Positions 8,717-51,732 of a stretch of DNA of 64,000 bases are shown in pieces. The notes below the pieces were generated by a model, which saw nothing but the letters and a program-made list of their open reading frames with translations, searched no databases and was not told the DNA's origin. The stretch is from Escherichia coli (GTDB taxonomy: Bacteria; Pseudomonadota; Gammaproteobacteria; Enterobacterales; Enterobacteriaceae): assembly GCF_030384885.1 (NCBI RefSeq), contig NZ_CP128613.1, one strand, 5' to 3'. Both the position numbers and the translations under genes were made by a program. How positions within the stretch are numbered: position 1 is the first letter of the stretch; each line of letters begins with the position of its first letter.

Positions 8717-9319
8717 TTATACCGCCTCAGTCAATTCAGGCTGAGGCGTTTCTACTCCCTCCGCATGAATCAACACCAAACCCGGATGATGCCACAAACT
8801 GGCTGGTGTTACGGTTTTACGCTCCCACGGAATCGAACCTAAAAACCAGAATTTCCAGAAAGTGAGTTTTGCGTTCGGATTGCTATTTAGCAGTTCTCCA
8901 AACGTCTCTATTTCACCCACCGGAATACATAACGCCTCTTTATAAATATCAAAAACGAATTTTGAGCAGAACTGGCGGGAAGATTCGTATTTAAAGCCGG
9001 TGTGGTAGAGCTTATGCAACCGTCCGGGGACCTTTTCGACCAGAGCAAGTTTTTGCTCTGCGGTTAAACCTCCTGCGAGGCGGCGAACACCGTAGCGTTG
9101 ATCGGTCGACCGTTCAATAAATCGTGACAAAGTTGTGATTGTGGAGAGCGGAACTCGACTCTCCGCAACCAGGTAATCATCACCGTCATGTCCGATGATT
9201 ATCCCCACATGGTTGCTCCAGCATTTCGAGGCTGCAGAGATTTGCCCAAACAGGCGAGCACCGATGCAGGTAAAAACAATATCACCGGTTTCATATTTAG
9301 CTGGGTAATTTATTTTCAC
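8717..9319 (-). CDS. yebB: DUF830 family protein
   Basis: 200-aa ORF convergent on ruvC; translation recognised as YebB. Confidence 0.82.
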
Positions 9320-9412
9320 TATATCAATCCATTATTTATATATAAAACAGCATCTATCTTTCGTGATGGTAAAGCATTAGCATTGTATTATAATAATGAC
9401 AAGGAATGTTTT

Positions 9413-10237
9413 ATGCGGTTATTTATTAATGTGATAATTATAGTTTCGATCAGTCAATGCGTGAATGTATTTGCTCAAGATAATGTCATCCGCTATCCCT
9501 GGCGATATGGACGTATTTCTTTAAATGAGAATAATGAGTTTGTGCCTCAAATTATTCATATGCGTGATGATATCTACGGCGTGGGTGAAGCTGGTGCAAG
9601 CCTTAACGATGCGAGAATGGCGCAAAGTGGTGTCGCCGTGAGGCTTAGCGTTATACAGCAGGGGCAGGTGGTGAATGCTTTACTGGATTTCTACAATAGC
9701 AATAATCAACCTGCTTATATCTTTGAAGGTGGTTTGATGCCTTGCAATAAAGCCTTTGACATCACAACAAGCAACATTGTCCTTGATGGGATGTGTGGAA
9801 TTTATGATGGGGTCGATGGCTGGCAAGTTATTCCTGCGGGTGATCATTATAAAGAATCATTTTCACTCACTCAGGCTTTTGAATTTCTGCCGGGAAAACA
9901 TCATTATAAAATTAATGCCGGAAGTTTTATCATCAGAGTCGGGGATGATATTTTTGCAAGAGAGGACGCCGAAAGCATTCTTTTTGATTTGATTAACTGG
10001 CGATATGGCTATGTGCTAAAAAGTTATGAAAGGGTGTCGAAGTGGGATTTAATGGCAGGGACTTATGTACTGCCTGAATACTCGGGGGATAAAAGAATGG
10101 ATGAGTATCGAATTTACTCAAACCAGGTGTCGATTGATCTTAATGGTGACGAGTTAGCACATACGGAGTCCTATCAGTGGCGAATTGATAGCGGAATGAT
10201 CCCGGAAAAATTCAGCGTTCAGGAACTCGCTGAATGA
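9413..10237 (+). CDS. Hypothetical secreted protein (signal peptide), unknown family; not part of the K-12 gene order as I recall it
   Basis: 274-aa ORF from ATG 9413 with AAGGAA RBS 6 nt upstream; N-terminus MRLFINVIIIVSISQCVNVFA/QD looks like a SPase I signal peptide; AT-rich codon usage; track ORF from 9188 overlaps yebB and is not the likely start. Confidence 0.6.
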   Translation: MRLFINVIIIVSISQCVNVFAQDNVIRYPWRYGRISLNENNEFVPQIIHMRDDIYGVGEAGASLNDARMAQSGVAVRLSVIQQGQVVNALLDFYNSNNQPAYIFEGGLMPCNKAFDITTSNIVLDGMCGIYDGVDGWQVIPAGDHYKESFSLTQAFEFLPGKHHYKINAGSFIIRVGDDIFAREDAESILFDLINWRYGYVLKSYERVSKWDLMAGTYVLPEYSGDKRMDEYRIYSNQVSIDLNGDELAHTESYQWRIDSGMIPEKFSVQELAE

Positions 10238-10274
10238 ATCGTCCTCTACCTGCTTGCCAGATACAGAGGCGCGG

Positions 10275-10859
10275 ATGAATTTATCAAGCGTATTCAATCA
10301 GCTTTTAATCTCATTTGCTCTTGCCGGGACGTTGATATTAAGCAGCTATCTCATGAAAGCTCACTACCCACGTTTCAGGAAGCCAATTGCGCTCTTTTAC
10401 TTCTTTTTAGCGATTTATACCAGTTATGCTGCCGTTCAGGAGTATGAGTACCACCGCAATAGCTTGACTACGCTCGCAAAAGTTTCTTCGATTCGTTATA
10501 CCAGTAATTTTAAGCGTAGCGCCTCGCACTCCTGCAATTTACTGCGGGGAGGAAGGATTGATTGCTCGGGGCTGTATGCCTATGACCTGACCTGGCAGAT
10601 TGACGGTAAGACCTGGAATTTGCATGTTGAGGACAAGCGTATAAAACCAGGAATCACCATGTGCGTGAAGGTTGTAAAAGATCGCCCCGCCATCGGGAAA
10701 CCCTGTGAAAACGTGTTTTTCAATATCAGCCCTTTGCCGATTCTGATAGCTATATGGGCAATAAGCGCATTTATATTTGCGGTCTTACTCCTTCACCAAC
10801 TAAAAAAATGCCGCGAATGGAAGCACGCCAGCAAGGAACGTGGAAAAATTGGCCATTAG
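10275..10859 (+). CDS. Hypothetical membrane protein, three predicted TM helices with Cys-rich loop, unknown family
   Basis: 194-aa ORF from ATG 10275 with GAGG RBS; 37 nt after upstream ORF stop; hydrophobic helices near N-terminus (x2) and C-terminus; basic C-terminal tail; AT-rich. Confidence 0.55.
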   Translation: MNLSSVFNQLLISFALAGTLILSSYLMKAHYPRFRKPIALFYFFLAIYTSYAAVQEYEYHRNSLTTLAKVSSIRYTSNFKRSASHSCNLLRGGRIDCSGLYAYDLTWQIDGKTWNLHVEDKRIKPGITMCVKVVKDRPAIGKPCENVFFNISPLPILIAIWAISAFIFAVLLLHQLKKCREWKHASKERGKIGH

Positions 10860-10957
10860 AAGTCAAAGAAAGAGTGCGATGTAAGGTGATTCATAGAAAA
10901 TTTCAGATACCGTGAGCCAAAGGATTATCAGTTCTGAAATGATTTAATATCATCCCT

Positions 10958-10977
10958 CGCTGGATATCTATCCAGCA
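10958..10977 (+). promoter_or_regulatory. LexA (SOS) box of ruvAB operon
   Basis: cgCTGGATATCTATCCAGca, CTG-N10-CAG palindrome about 50 nt upstream of ruvA start; matches the known ruvA SOS box. Confidence 0.8.
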
Positions 10978-11026
10978 TTTTTTTATCATACAGCATTATC
11001 TTTGATTCATTACGCAGGAGCGTCAT

Positions 11027-33709: not shown

Positions 33710-34010
33710 CATTTAAGCTGATGACCACCACGCTTTTTATTGACCATTTTGCACGCAAACTGGAAAACCTGGCGTCGTCATCTATTCTTAAAGGGCAAGG
33801 CAACTAAGCCTGCATTAATGCCAACTTTTAGCGCACGGCTCTCTCCCAAGAGCCATTTCCCTGGACCGAATACAGGAATCGTGTTCGGTCTCTTTTTATC
33901 TGTTAAAAGCCAGAAGCATTCCCTTCGCTGACTTTATAGTCAACCATAACACACACTCTACTGTCTGAGTCCAGCGTTTTTTAACATTCTTGTTAAGATT
34001 ATGTGATCTT
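33700..34010 (-). ncRNA. ryeA: Antisense sRNA RyeA (SraC) overlapping sdsR; boundaries approximate
   Basis: Inferred from the known antisense arrangement at the yebY-pphA locus; ends not determined from sequence. Confidence 0.35.
33795..33897 (+). ncRNA. sdsR: Small regulatory RNA SdsR (RyeB)
   Basis: Sequence gcaaggcaactaagcctgcattaatgcc...ggaccgaatacaggaatcgtgttcggtctcttttt recognised as SdsR; 3' terminator hairpin plus T-run; sigma-S-like -10 (tctattctt) just upstream. Confidence 0.75.
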
Positions 34011-47740: not shown

Positions 47741-47837
47741 TAGCATGAGAAAAATAAAGTTGAAGGTGGCGTTATATTAAACGCACTTGCGATAAGAATA
47801 TTTTACTTATGAGTGAGAATCTGGTTATTTATTACCC

Positions 47838-48077
47838 TTAACCATTATCGACCACAATATTGCTTTTACGTAACAACGGGCAATCTGTTATCCCCAGAAA
47901 ACCACTTTTAGTGTGCAGGTATTGTACCGTGCTGGTGCCTCTGGCGGTCAGATAGGTACATTGCAAACCTAATCCCGCGGCATTCTCTTTGCTTCCAATC
48001 AAAACGCCATATCCGCTGAGTAATAATCCTATCCATACCAGTGCTATCAGCATAACTGTGCGAATGATGAATCGCAT
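47838..48077 (-). CDS. yobH: Small membrane-associated protein YobH
   Basis: 79-aa ORF with hydrophobic N-terminus; matches expected position. Confidence 0.7.
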   Translation of the reverse strand: MRFIIRTVMLIALVWIGLLLSGYGVLIGSKENAAGLGLQCTYLTARGTSTVQYLHTKSGFLGITDCPLLRKSNIVVDNG

Positions 48078-48235
48078 TACAACCTCTTCTCTTTTTATGT
48101 TCGCTTAATCGTAGCGGCAATATGCGCTGAAGCAAGCGACTCATTCTGAAAAAGCACGAATATCGACATAGTTAGGCGCTGTTTAACTAACACATGCTAG
48201 TTTAATGACATAAGGTAGGTGAAACGGAGATTGGA

Positions 48236-48379
48236 GTGAAAAAGTTTCGATGGGTCGTTCTGGTTGTCGTGGTGTTGGCTTGCTTGCTGCTTTGGGCGCA
48301 GGTATTCAACATGATGTGCGATCAGGATGTACAATTTTTCAGCGGAATTTGTGCCATTAACCAGTTTATCCCGTGGTGA
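48236..48379 (+). CDS. mgrB: PhoQ inhibitor small membrane protein MgrB
   Basis: GTG start; translation [47 protein letters not shown] (47 aa) recognised as MgrB; below the ORF-track size cutoff. Confidence 0.85.
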
Positions 48380-48453
48380 TATCATTTTTTCAGCACTAGA
48401 TTTTCTTCCTCTCCAGCAGTGGTAGAATAGCGCCTCTACTCAGAGGTGGTGAA

Positions 48454-48741
48454 ATGAACGAAGTTGTAAATTCAGGCGTGATGAACATTGCGTCTTTGGT
48501 TGTATCGGTGGTGGTTCTTCTTATCGGGCTCATCTTGTGGTTTTTTATCAATCGTGCCAGTTCACGAACTAACGAACAGATTGAACTGCTTGAGGCGTTG
48601 CTGGATCAGCAAAAACGTCAAAATGCACTGTTACGTCGTTTGTGCGAAGCAAACGAACCTGAGAAAGCAGATAAAAAGACCGTTGAGAGTCAAAAATCGG
48701 TTGAAGACGAAGATATTATTCGTCTGGTCGCCGAACGGTAA
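48454..48741 (+). CDS. yebO: Small membrane protein YebO
   Basis: 95-aa ORF; N-terminal TM then charged coiled region. Confidence 0.78.
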   Translation: MNEVVNSGVMNIASLVVSVVVLLIGLILWFFINRASSRTNEQIELLEALLDQQKRQNALLRRLCEANEPEKADKKTVESQKSVEDEDIIRLVAER

Positions 48742-49410
48742 TCCTTCCTCAATCTTGAGTAACCCCGTCGTTGAAGGGTTACTCAATTCATCCTGATTAT
48801 ACGCACTGTCATGGTGCAACTGCTTCAATTTAAAACTCTGGTCTGACTTCAAATAATTATCATATTATTTATTTGCGTAACGGGATATCAGAAAAAGATA
48901 TTTAGCCCATTAATTTATTAGGATGTTTACATCGGATTTGTGATTAAGCGTGTTATTATTTATTAGCGAAACGTTTCTCTCTTGATTTTTTTGCGCATTC
49001 ATCAATTTTTCTTATTTTAAATTTACAATACCTTTGGGGATTGACTTCTCTTTGGGGTGATTGATAGCCGTTAACTGACTGTTTTATGAGAAAAAGTGAT
49101 ATAACTTTTTATTCATTGCATAGCAGAAAATGTGATATTGCACGCACTATGTAATAACTTCTCCCATTGGCCTGGAACAACTGAACTTATTGAACTATGT
49201 TAGAAAATACGTCAGTTTAAGTATCTGCCTGAACTGGCAAGGTTAAGCACAATGATATATCGGCGCGTATTCCGTTGCATAAGTGTGCAAAAAAAGTGGA
49301 AGACGTATCGAGATTTGTGCGTCTGATCGAGACATGTTTAAAAATGGCTTGCCATAATTAACGTTGTATGTGATAACAGATTTCGGGTTAAACGAGGTAC
49401 AGTTCTGTTT

Positions 49411-49554
49411 ATGTGTGGCATTTTCAGTAAAGAAGTCCTGAGTAAACACGTTGACGTTGAATACCGCTTCTCTGCCGAGCCTTATATTGGTGCCTCATGC
49501 AGTAATGTGTCAGTTTTATCTATGTTATGCCTGCGGGCGAAGAAAACAATCTAA
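49411..49554 (+). CDS. yobF: Small protein YobF
   Basis: 47-aa [50 protein letters not shown] ending 12 nt before cspC; below the ORF-track size cutoff. Confidence 0.8.
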
Positions 49555-49566
49555 GGAATTTTTCAA

Positions 49567-49776
49567 ATGGCAAAGATTAAAGGTCAGGTTAAGTGGTTCA
49601 ACGAGTCTAAAGGTTTTGGCTTCATTACTCCGGCTGATGGCAGCAAAGACGTGTTCGTACACTTCTCCGCTATCCAGGGTAATGGCTTCAAAACTCTGGC
49701 TGAAGGTCAGAACGTTGAGTTCGAAATTCAGGACGGTCAGAAAGGTCCGGCAGCTGTTAACGTAACAGCTATCTGA
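49567..49776 (+). CDS. cspC: Cold-shock-domain protein CspC
   Basis: 69-aa ORF; RNP motifs KGFGFI and VFVHF. Confidence 0.95.
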
Positions 49777-49823
49777 TCGAATCCACTGATCTGAAGTGTG
49801 AAGACACTTCAATCTCGCTATAA

Positions 49824-49849
49824 AGCCTCGTCGAATGCGAGGCTTTTTA
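49824..49849 (+). terminator. Rho-independent terminator after cspC
   Basis: agcctcg-tcgaat-gcgaggct hairpin followed by T5. Confidence 0.8.
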
Positions 49850-49941
49850 CTTTGTTTTATCTTCGCTCCTGGCGTTCGGATATTTGCCCGCCGCGTGATT
49901 CGCGTTACACTTGCGGCCTTTAGTATCCTGCCGGAGTTGTC

Positions 49942-50751
49942 ATGTCGTTTTCCTGTCCACTTTGCCATCAGCCTCTTTCGCGTGAAAAAAACAGCTATAT
50001 CTGTCCCCAGCGACATCAGTTTGATATGGCGAAAGAAGGGTATGTCAATCTGCTGCCCGTTCAGCATAAACGGTCTCGTGATCCGGGCGACAGCGCGGAA
50101 ATGATGCAAGCACGCCGCGCATTCTTAGATGCCGGACATTATCAGCCGCTGCGTGATGCAATTGTCGCCCAACTGCGGGAACGGCTTGATGAAAAGGCCA
50201 CGGCGGTGCTGGATATTGGCTGTGGTGAAGGGTATTACACACACGCATTTGCCGATGCGCTGCCCGAAATCACCACGTTTGGCCTGGATGTCTCGAAGGT
50301 AGCGATAAAAGCGGCGGCGAAACGCTATCCGCAGGTCACTTTTTGTGTTGCTTCCAGCCACCGTTTGCCGTTTTCCGATACCAGTATGGACGCCATAATA
50401 CGTATTTACGCGCCGTGTAAAGCAGAAGAATTAGCGCGAGTAGTGAAGCCCGGCGGTTGGGTCATTACTGCCACGCCGGGACCGCGACATTTGATGGAGC
50501 TGAAGGGGCTGATTTACAATGAAGTACATCTTCACGCACCTCATGCAGAACAACTGGAAGGTTTTACATTACAGCAGAGTGATGAGTTGTGTTATCCGAT
50601 GCGTCTTCGCGGTGACGAAGCCGTCGCGTTATTGCAGATGACGCCGTTTGCCTGGCGTGCGAAACCAGAAGTCTGGCAAACGCTGGCAGCAAAAGAAGTG
50701 TTCGACTGCCAGACGGACTTTAATATTCACCTCTGGCAGCGTTCTTATTAA
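49942..50751 (+). CDS. rlmA: 23S rRNA m1G745 methyltransferase
   Basis: 269-aa ORF; N-terminal Cys4 zinc motif and SAM motif DIGCGEGYY. Confidence 0.92.
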
Positions 50752-51314: not shown

Positions 51315-51329
51315 GACAACGTCCTGACC

Positions 51330-51500
51330 GGGGTATCCATAAAACACATCATCGCCCCCAGCAAACATGCATACATGAACAACAAACTGCGATGATTTTC
51401 GCGTTCATGCAGGCATAGCGATTGATGTGCATATGGTCTCGCCTGACTGAAAGTGTTCAGTCCGTACGTGCCACGTTTTGCAACGAGTATGTTGACACGT
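51330..51500 (-). promoter_or_regulatory. mntP 5' leader; expected site of the yybP-ykoY Mn2+ riboswitch (boundaries approximate)
   Basis: Long untranslated leader upstream of mntP; riboswitch assignment is from established knowledge of E. coli mntP, not structurally verified here. Confidence 0.45.
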
Positions 51501-51680
51501 ACATTTCCGGAATCTGGAAATCGGCTACTCCCCAAATGAGGGCGCAACATTAACATATTTTTAGAATATAAAACAACTGTTGGGATATATTATTTCAGCA
51601 GTTAATTGATAACGATTGTCATTTAGATTTATATATCAATGAAACGTTAAAATAAATAACAAATAAGGGAAGGGGTAATA

Positions 51681-51732
51681 TAGCCTAAGCTATGTCTGAT
51701 TATTAAAAATACACTAAACATAGCTTTGGCTA
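51681..51732. promoter_or_regulatory. 15-bp inverted repeat with MntR-box-like arms; alternatively yobD terminator
   Basis: tagcctaagctatgt - 22-nt AT-rich spacer - acatagctttggcta; arms resemble the MntR half-site AACATAGC. Confidence 0.3.

Follow-up and report, generated by a model that had tools for sequence, protein, structure and literature searches.

Three very short open reading frames (ORFs) on the Escherichia coli chromosome, mgrB, yobF and yoaH, raise the question of whether they, or the longer ORFs displayed at the same positions by a first-stage ORF track, are the genes of these loci, and, in the case of yobF, whether conservation acts on the protein or on the nucleic acid that encodes it. 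The window analyzed here is a 64,000-nucleotide stretch of E. coli chromosome that is 100% identical to strain 2013C-4282 over the stretches compared. The coordinates, strand, length and start codon that the initial annotation had assigned to each of the three ORFs are exact (Table 1), and upon alignment their translations are 100% identical to the K-12 proteins b1826 (mgrB), b1824 (yobF) and b1811 (yoaH). The reason first offered for their omission holds in part; the track displays ORFs from a cutoff of 60 aa, and length below that cutoff explains all three absences, whereas the GTG start of mgrB does not contribute, since the ORF caller takes both GTG and TTG as starts.

ORFs this short are by themselves not significant here, as the 1.8-kb mgrB-yobF stretch is overlapped by 34 ORFs of 20 aa or longer. 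That the three ORFs are real follows from their identity to curated K-12 proteins, together with family matches, RefSeq annotation and evolutionary signatures. RefSeq carries coding sequence (CDS) features for mgrB, yobF and yoaH at the same coordinates, in a stretch shared by 5416 of the 5426 complete E. coli genomes; all three also appear in the output of the NCBI PGAP pipeline and in the curated K-12 annotation, and nothing contradicts their gene identities; sequence searches of the PDB with MgrB, YobF and YoaH returned nothing meaningful. They are almost certainly genuine, long-annotated small-protein genes of E. coli, hidden only by the 60-aa cutoff of the track.

The initial list of short genes was correct for these three, but it was not complete, since yoaL also lies in the window. 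The ORF caller mis-starts this gene, extending it to an 84-aa ORF with a TTG start. When a stop codon is placed in yoaL, yoaE-lacZ is expressed less (bioRxiv 10.1101/511675). The 21-aa gene yobI, found between ruvA and yebB in K-12, is absent from the window, where just 39 nt of its flank are left.

Table 1. Genes, sites and competing reading frames in the window (aa, amino acids; nt, nucleotides)
Feature	Position	Strand	Details
PhoP-box-like direct repeat TAGTTAggcgcTGTTTA	48169..48185	+	upstream of mgrB; consensus with 2 mismatches
Spurious ORF antisense to mgrB	48197..48385	-	62 aa; no family match
mgrB Shine-Dalgarno GGAG	48226..48229	+	6 nt before GTG; read from sequence
mgrB CDS	48236..48379	+	47 aa, GTG start; identical to K-12 b1826; RefSeq CDS
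Spurious ORF antisense to yobF start and leader	49243..49449	-	68 aa; no family match
Candidate yobF-cspC promoter	49349..49377	+	TTGCCA, 17 nt, TGtGATAAC (extended -10); inferred from conservation
GGGTTAAACGAGG block	49385..49397	+	contains yobF Shine-Dalgarno GAGG, 13 nt before ATG; complementary to OxyS nt 15-27
yobF CDS	49411..49554	+	47 aa, ATG start; first gene of yobF-cspC operon; identical to K-12 b1824; RefSeq CDS
yobF codons 1-26, nucleotide-constrained block	49411..49488	+	8/6/3 variable columns of 26 at codon positions 1/2/3 (10 genera)
Alternative-frame ORF	49451-49765	+	104 aa
ORF over yobF region	49525-50109	-	194 aa
Small hairpin GCC-TGCG-GGC	49529..49538	+	in yobF 3' part; aligns with GCCgaaaGGC hairpin of cspA leader model (Rfam)
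yobF stop TAA overlapping cspC Shine-Dalgarno (tAAGGA)	49552..49557	+	cspC ATG at 49567
cspC	49567..49776	+	69 aa; cold-shock-domain RNA chaperone; downstream partner of yobF; NCBIfam CspC subfamily, 170 bits
yoaL	55271..55429	+	52 aa; leader ORF overlapping start of yoaE (mgpA); identical to K-12 b4751; RefSeq CDS
Spurious ORF antisense to yoaH	62255..62554	-	99 aa; no family match
yoaH Shine-Dalgarno AGGAG	62260..62264	+	6 nt before ATG; read from sequence
yoaH CDS	62271..62450	+	59 aa, ATG start; UPF0181 family; divergent from pabB; identical to K-12 b1811; RefSeq CDS

Conservation of yobF within the cspC leader

YobF matches the Pfam family PF10736 (DUF2527/DUF2627) with 105 bits against a cutoff of 25 (E = 1.7e-30), and NCBIfam holds no model that matches it. 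Almost all named members among its 74 relatives come from Enterobacterales. The gene immediately precedes cspC and is read in the same direction, both in the window and in each of the nine other genera sampled, and its ATG is retained in 10 of 10 genera. The K-12 locus shows no difference, with the same 47 aa and 12 nt from the yobF stop to the cspC ATG. A terminator-like hairpin lies downstream of cspC, at 49822-49846. In Apirhabdus, the cspC copy downstream of yobF is frameshifted. A tblastn search of the yebO-yobF spacer for remnants of the metallo-beta-lactamase-fold gene found there in other genera revealed none. Translation of yobF has been documented by a Ribo-RET start peak and an epitope tag, and YobF-6xHis was located to the membrane fraction (PMC11429745); a yobF::sfgfp translational fusion is likewise active, and is repressed by OxyS (PMC10965054).

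Unlike an ordinary protein family, YobF has a core (codons 1-26) that is conserved as nucleotides and a C-terminal part that is variable. The excess of third-position changes that marks purifying selection on a protein is not seen in codons 1-26 across 10 genera, where third positions are instead the least variable of the three (Table 1). Their pairwise difference is 0.050, compared with 0.244 in cspC (Fisher p = 1.8e-5), placing third-position variability about 5-fold below that of cspC synonymous sites in the same genomes; cspC itself has a codon signature of 3/1/42 variable columns of 69. The loci were picked via YobF protein hits, which favours conserved ORFs but cannot alone make third positions the least variable. 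Conservation is continuous from the untranslated leader into the ORF. Among the loci sampled, the 3' half of yobF carries non-triplet indels (-2/+2 in Klebsiella) and frameshift-like protein variants, and its stop varies in position, with products of 38-56 aa. Taken alone, these comparative data do not show selection on the YobF peptide. The lack of a coding signature weakens the claim of an ordinary protein family, not that of translation, and conservation of codons 1-26 at all three positions places yobF within a nucleotide-constrained cspC leader. We found no description of this synonymous-site constraint in the papers examined.

The candidate promoter blocks, AAAAATGGCTTGC(C/T)AT and GT(A/G)TGT(G/A)ATAAC, are near-invariant in 10 genera; the pick of a consensus scanner differs (49329-49358), and its -10 is not conserved. 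The GGGTTAAACGAGG block is also near-invariant in 10 genera, and its predicted duplex with K-12 OxyS has an energy of -36.4 kcal/mol, compared with -28.0 +/- 4.0 for shuffles, 13 of 300 of which were as good. OxyS is known to repress yobF-cspC (PMC10965054). At the other end of the ORF, Citrobacter, Klebsiella and Leclercia share the E. coli spacing between the yobF stop and cspC. In Serratia, Rouxiella, Brenneria and Atlantibacter the stop comes 36-41 nt earlier, and in Cronobacter the ORF continues into cspC. Overlap of the stop with the cspC Shine-Dalgarno is not conserved beyond the Escherichia-Citrobacter-Klebsiella-Leclercia group.

We also looked for a structured RNA in the leader. The Rfam model of the cspA thermoregulator (RF01766) matches 49391-49851 with 135.4 bits against a gathering threshold of 78, over model positions 1-428. 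The yobF-cspC leader shares with the cspA leader the short blocks GUACAG, AGUAA-GAAGUCC and CGUUGA and the GCC-loop-GGC hairpin; unlike the cspA leader, it contains a translated ORF. Over the 5' UTR, however, the alignment has low posterior probability and many broken or non-canonical pairs, and the csp coding region gives most of the score. Neither RNAalifold on 10 genera nor single-sequence folding provided evidence for temperature-dependent structure, and we do not class the leader as a thermosensor, the score above threshold being carried by csp coding sequence. In 9 of 10 genera the 3' hairpin of yobF retains its stem with a changing loop, but shows no double compensatory change. RNAalifold on the same number of genera predicted a long-range helix of 41 pairs, none of which has a compensatory change, the sequence being too invariant, and the single-sequence fold of the E. 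coli leader was no more stable than shuffles (z = +1.04). A conserved RNA structure is not claimed, given the lack of compensatory pairs and a stability like that of shuffles.

One alternative is that yobF is primarily a cis-acting cspC leader, with conservation imposed on RNA or DNA through sRNA pairing, cspA-type elements or internal promoters and a peptide that matters little. The low variability of third positions in codons 1-26, the unbroken conservation from leader to ORF, the indels, frameshift-like variants and displaced stops of the 3' half, the Rfam cspA-leader model spanning the ORF and the OxyS site at the yobF Shine-Dalgarno all point in this direction. In further support, the phenotype of a Salmonella yobF deletion was a polar effect on cspC that a yobF plasmid did not rescue (PMC8599858), and IS insertions in yobF silence cspC (PMC13162491). 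Yet the low-Mg growth defect of a yobF deletion can be complemented in trans by plasmid-borne yobF only if its start codon is intact, and not by a start-to-stop mutant, which points to the peptide, or at least to its translation (PMC11429745). The ATG present in all ten genera and the unsupported leader RNA structure also speak against a purely cis-acting role, and we regard this alternative as rather unlikely. The part of it by which translation of yobF serves mainly to control cspC seems to us doubtful to the same degree. In arrangement, yobF resembles the leader ORFs of yoaL-yoaE and mgtL-mgtA that tune a downstream gene, in that a short ORF lies next to a larger gene, or overlaps its ribosome-binding site, on one transcript. 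Unlike those ORFs, yobF has a reported trans-acting peptide phenotype (PMC11429745), and its stop does not keep a conserved position relative to cspC. An effect of yobF translation on that of cspC is putative.

The reading that we prefer assigns yobF two roles. A 47-aa peptide is made from the 5' part of the yobF-cspC transcript, with its ORF embedded in a leader conserved as nucleic acid and an OxyS pairing site at the yobF ribosome-binding site; the locus would be both a small-protein gene and a control region setting cspC expression. We tentatively suggest, at somewhat less than even confidence, that the YobF 'protein family' is largely a side effect of a regulatory element, RNA or DNA, under deep conservation, and that yobF has a dual coding and cis-regulatory function. 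By the same account, to which we give comparably guarded credence, the first ~80 nt of yobF and the ~27 nt before them would form a nucleotide-constrained cspC leader module that is translated incidentally. Within this module would lie the site of OxyS pairing, and perhaps also leader elements of the cspA type or sites of Csp autoregulation.

MgrB and YoaH as small proteins

The product of mgrB matches NCBIfam NF007635 over its full length, 1-47, with 89.9 bits against a cutoff of 40 (E = 8e-26), and Pfam PF13998 with 66.3 bits against a cutoff of 27. Across 7 genera, its sense frame has 23/15/38 variable columns of 47 at codon positions 1/2/3, the classic third-codon-position substitution pattern. 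The GTG start is retained in 7/7 genera and the GGAG-N6-GTG arrangement in six of them, the remaining genus, Citrobacter, having a 6-nt insertion there. MgrB shows the expected layout of ~47 aa, an N-terminal hydrophobic helix and a C-terminal CDQD...FFSGIC...IPW region with two conserved cysteines; throughout the 7 genera, C28, C39 and W47 do not vary and residues 6-24 stay hydrophobic. Upstream, the GTTTA of the proximal PhoP half-site is invariant in 7 genera. The PhoP-box pattern, with 2 mismatches allowed, has 25 matches in the window where 15 are expected, which alone is not significant and is not evidence; PhoP dependence of the mgrB promoter and function of its PhoP box are known from the literature (PMC11429745). 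The sequence, GTG start, GGAG-N6 spacing, upstream PhoP box and yobH-mgrB-yebO neighbourhood are those of K-12 b1826 without difference, and its opposite strand reflects only the orientation of the window, which runs in reverse to K-12 numbering.

The role of PhoQ feedback inhibitor that the initial annotation gave to MgrB is established for the identical K-12 protein, for which a Ribo-RET (retapamulin) start peak and an epitope tag have also been published (PMC11429745). The mechanism comes from that literature, and the sequence anatomy is confirmed by our analysis. In that mechanism, MgrB is a 47-aa inner-membrane peptide whose transcription is activated by PhoP via a PhoP box at the -35 position; by inhibiting the PhoQ kinase, the peptide closes a negative feedback loop.

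The name given to NF007635, 'PhoP/PhoQ regulatory lipoprotein MgrB', and to one RefSeq record, implies instead a lipid-anchored lipoprotein whose signal peptide is cleaved at Cys16, rather than an uncleaved transmembrane peptide. Cys16 is invariant in 7 genera and in E. coli is preceded by a lipobox-like V-L-A. Across the seven genera, however, the position just ahead of Cys16 is occupied by A, V, A, L, A, T and G; V and L belong neither to the canonical G/A/S set, as given in PMC12462473, nor to any other accepted set. The canonical lipobox [LVI][ASTVI][GAS]C is therefore not conserved. No paper linking MgrB to lipidation was found in our literature search, and MgrB has been described as a 47-aa transmembrane protein (PMC11429745). 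We consider the lipoprotein assignment improbable, and retain that of a transmembrane peptide.

YoaH matches NCBIfam NF003476 with 114.2 bits against a cutoff of 72 (E = 1.5e-33) and Pfam PF03701 (UPF0181) with 100.9 bits against a cutoff of 23.5, and has 640 relatives at E <= 1e-3. With 11/5/43 variable columns of 59 at codon positions 1/2/3 in four genera, yoaH displays the classic third-codon-position pattern, and purifying selection is clear. The AlphaFold2 model is a helical hairpin with a core pLDDT of 95-98; a Foldseek search of the PDB gave no significant relative of this fold (best E = 2.8), and a literature search found no direct translation data or function for YoaH. The gene encodes a 59-aa soluble protein with a predicted two-helix hairpin and a disordered acidic tail, always divergent from pabB, and YoaH is most likely a small protein-binding module. 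The K-12 protein is the same over all 59 aa and is likewise encoded divergently from pabB. The loci differ downstream; in the window a 150-aa pentapeptide-repeat gene starts 6 nt past the yoaH stop, whereas K-12 has a 119-nt gap and a convergent yoaC.

The longer reading frames at the same positions

As the initial annotation had pointed out, antisense and alternative-frame ORFs are displayed where mgrB, yobF and yoaH lie. Only five ORFs of at least 60 aa cover these positions (Table 1). There is practically no chance that four of these, all except the 194-aa ORF, are the genuine genes and that the short sense ORFs are incidental. All four are longer than 60 aa and uninterrupted in the window, and the one antisense to mgrB is also open in Citrobacter, but none of the four is annotated in RefSeq or K-12, and the three minus-strand ORFs tested (antisense to mgrB, to the yobF start and to yoaH) have no match in Pfam or NCBIfam. 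Most other genera have stops in the frames antisense to mgrB and yoaH. The former contains 1-3 stops in 5/7 genera. The latter is open only in E. coli, with every antisense frame having at least one stop in Klebsiella, Cronobacter and Atlantibacter. The upstream sequence needed by the ORF antisense to the yobF start diverges completely between genera. In addition, the substitution patterns of mgrB and yoaH fit their sense frames, and the 104-aa plus-strand ORF crosses cspC, which has its own unambiguous coding signature, out of frame. As genes, these four ORFs are effectively refuted by family, annotation, stop and substitution evidence.

Implications for annotation and for yobF-cspC

Loss of mgrB hyperactivates PhoQ and, in Klebsiella, results in colistin resistance. 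All three genes are handled by standard annotation, and knowledge of the genome gains nothing new from their recovery; the result is one of quality control, in that a 60-aa cutoff conceals functionally important genes and displays spurious antisense ORFs in their place. The yobF-cspC operon is a recurrent adaptive hotspot, with a link to RpoS and PhoP regulation. Given that the core of yobF is constrained as nucleic acid and not as protein, experiments on yobF-cspC should separate the effects of the peptide from those of the leader.

Small genes below the length floor

The initial annotation held that mgrB, yobF and yoaH were missing from the mechanical ORF track, and our ORF scan found all three at exactly the coordinates, strands, lengths and starts it had claimed (table below); the track shows only five ORFs over these positions at its 60-aa floor, as had been described. 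Short ORFs are frequent by chance, with 34 of at least 20 aa overlapping the 1.8-kb stretch around mgrB-yobF, and therefore the case for these genes rests on other evidence. Their translations are the K-12 MG1655 proteins (b1826, b1824 and b1811, respectively), including the GTG start of mgrB; RefSeq annotates them at exactly the same coordinates, and three antisense ORFs that we tested had no Pfam or NCBIfam match. Length alone accounts for all three omissions; the non-ATG start also blamed for mgrB does not, since the ORF caller allows GTG and TTG as starts too. The window is E. coli chromosomal DNA, and its stretches 47800-49800 and 62000-64000 match NZ_CP027579.1 (E. coli strain 2013C-4282) at 100% identity. 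Of 5426 complete E. coli genomes, 5416 carry the former at ≥80% coverage and only three carry the latter in full.

Features discussed, in window coordinates (mgrB, yobF and yoaH from the ORF scan)
Feature	Position	Strand	Start, length	NCBIfam	Pfam
yebB-ruvA insertion	9188-10859	+
SraC/RyeA and SdsR/RyeB	33757-33901	- and +
mgrB	48236-48379	+	GTG, 47 aa	NF007635, E = 8e-26	PF13998
track ORF	48197-48385	-	62 aa
yebO-yobF spacer	48742-49410		669 bp
track ORF	49243-49449	-	68 aa
GGGUUAAACGAGG	49385-49397
cspA-leader match	49391-49851
yobF	49411-49554	+	ATG, 47 aa	none	PF10736, E = 1.7e-30
track ORF	49451-49765	+	104 aa
track ORF	49525-50109	-	194 aa
cspC	49567-49776	+
PhoP box	55221-55237
yoaL	55271-55429	+	ATG, 52 aa
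yoaE	55417-56973		518 aa
yoaH	62271-62450	+	ATG, 59 aa	NF003476, E = 1.5e-33	PF03701
track ORF	62255-62554	-	99 aa
pentapeptide-repeat gene	62457-62909	+	150 aa

The list of small genes was right in the three it named but left out a fourth annotated gene below 60 aa, yoaL, which is identical to K-12 b4751. The track does not omit yoaL but mis-starts it, as an 84-aa TTG ORF from 55175. yoaL is a published leader ORF of yoaE/mgpA (10.1101/511675; PMC12421838), and the near-consensus PhoP box 34 nt 5' of it, TGTTTAactccCGTTTA, is a published DNase I-footprinted PhoP site (PMC5775216). yoaE is intact in the window, with a run of six G at 55693-55698; NZ_CP027579.1 has five, its yoaE is annotated as frameshifted and window-to-record coordinates shift by one base, probably a homopolymer sequencing error in that record.

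Elsewhere in the window, the 21-aa K-12 gene yobI is absent and an insertion carried by 19 of 5426 E. coli genomes takes its place between yebB and ruvA, with two hypothetical genes, one of 349 aa and one of about 200 aa, and just 39 nt of yobI flank left (10950-10988). The antisense sRNA pair SraC/RyeA and SdsR/RyeB scores well above the Rfam threshold, as in K-12. Upstream of mntP (about 51315-51742, minus strand), nothing reached an Rfam gathering score; in K-12 the literature puts a yybP-ykoY Mn riboswitch in the mntP leader. RefSeq locus tags skip one number here (RS03240).

Coding signal in mgrB and yoaH

We compared the yobF neighbourhood with that of nine other Enterobacterales genera, and yoaH with three, counting variable alignment columns at codon positions 1/2/3. 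The positive control, cspC, gave 3/1/42 of 69 columns (nine genera), mgrB 23/15/38 of 47 (seven genera) and yoaH 11/5/43 of 59 (four genera). By this measure mgrB and yoaH behave as protein-coding genes in their sense frames, and stops arise in the frames antisense to both in most other genera.

All seven genera share the GTG start and the residues C16, C28, C39 and W47 of MgrB, and six of them retain GGAG-N6-GTG. That MgrB inhibits PhoQ, as had been noted, agrees with its restated role as a PhoP-induced inhibitor (PMC11429745), the protein here being identical to that of K-12. The start profiling proposed as a check is already published: Ribo-RET peaks fall at the annotated MgrB and YobF starts, following earlier epitope-tag validation (PMC11429745). 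The NCBIfam release 20 model is named 'PhoP/PhoQ regulatory lipoprotein MgrB'. The residue preceding invariant Cys16 is A, V, A, L, A, T or G across the seven genera, so that a canonical lipobox (residues 13-16) is not kept, and our literature search found no paper supporting MgrB lipidation.

yoaH is divergent from pabB in 4/4 genera, and the gene downstream differs among them; here a pentapeptide-repeat gene, with no K-12 gene at its position, begins 6 nt past the yoaH stop. An AlphaFold2 model from 38 diverse homologues gives a two-helix hairpin (residues 10-25 and 30-46, core pLDDT 95-98) with a disordered acidic tail; the PDB held neither a significant structural neighbour nor a sequence relative, and our literature search returned only a transcriptomic mention. 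The YoaH-like hairpin motif, LTxEQQQxV...GxxxxEAIxxVAxxLR, also occurs as three to six tandem repeats in database proteins P0280, which has a signal-peptide-like N-terminus, and P0213, which lacks one, and C-terminally in proteins of roughly 365 aa (P0213, P0280, P0240 and P0261 are the proteins concerned).

Nucleotide-level constraint in yobF

yobF differs. In codons 1-26, compared across 10 genera, third positions vary least (8/6/3 of 26 columns), with a mean third-position pairwise difference of 0.050 versus 0.244 for the cspC of those genomes (Fisher p = 1.8e-5). Conservation runs unbroken into the 27 nt before the ATG and then into promoter-like blocks farther upstream. Drift sets in past codon 26, with a -2 indel followed by one of +2 in Klebsiella, a shift to the +1 frame in some database proteins, and a stop whose position varies, so that the products of the sampled loci are 38-56 aa long. 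Because third positions vary least, conservation extends upstream and the distal sequence drifts, the YobF-family core is under constraint at the nucleic-acid level; selection on the peptide is not shown by comparison of sequences alone. Experimentally, YobF-6xHis associates with the membrane, and delta-yobF grows poorly in low Mg, its plasmid rescue needing an intact start codon (PMC11429745); a delta-yobF phenotype in Salmonella was a polar effect on cspC (PMC8599858).

The downstream gene is named cspE in RefSeq records, but it is the cspC orthologue, because it scores higher with the NCBIfam CspC subfamily (170 bits versus 145 for CspE) and its syntenic K-12 gene is cspC. yobF-cspC is a mutational hotspot, and cspC is silenced there when an IS inserts in yobF (PMC13162491). 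In Apirhabdus apintestini (locus L013, about 2660-2870), the cspC copy downstream of yobF lacks 1 nt and loses its reading frame after codon 38, and no gene is called there; either this is a pseudogene or the assembly is in error. The yebO-yobF spacer has no annotated gene, is 35% GC (window 50%) and coincides with one skipped RefSeq locus-tag number (RS03215). Cronobacter, Atlantibacter, Leclercia, Apirhabdus, Serratia and Rouxiella have a metallo-beta-lactamase-fold gene of ~330 aa upstream of yobF; no remnant of that gene was detectable in the E. coli spacer.

As to what could impose the constraint, the Rfam cspA-leader model matches at 135 bits (gathering score 78), aligning well over the csp coding region and in the leader only in short blocks (GUACAG, AGUAA-GAAGUCC, CGUUGA and a GCC-loop-GGC hairpin at 49529-49538). 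The consensus leader fold lacks compensatory pairs, and in stability the E. coli leader does not exceed shuffled sequence (z = +1.04). The invariant GGGUUAAACGAGG includes the yobF Shine-Dalgarno, unusually far (13 nt) from the ATG, and is complementary to OxyS nt 15-27; this predicted pairing agrees with published repression of yobF-cspC by OxyS (PMC10965054). An overlap of the yobF stop TAA (49552-49554) with the Shine-Dalgarno of cspC in E. coli suggests that the two genes are coupled; otherwise only Citrobacter, Klebsiella and Leclercia retain this geometry.

Altogether, the initial observation is confirmed and its interpretation supported, and all of its content was already known and annotated. 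One added point alone may be of interest, namely that the 5' half of yobF is constrained at the nucleotide level; this is a reason to regard yobF both as a small-protein gene and as belonging to the region that controls cspC.
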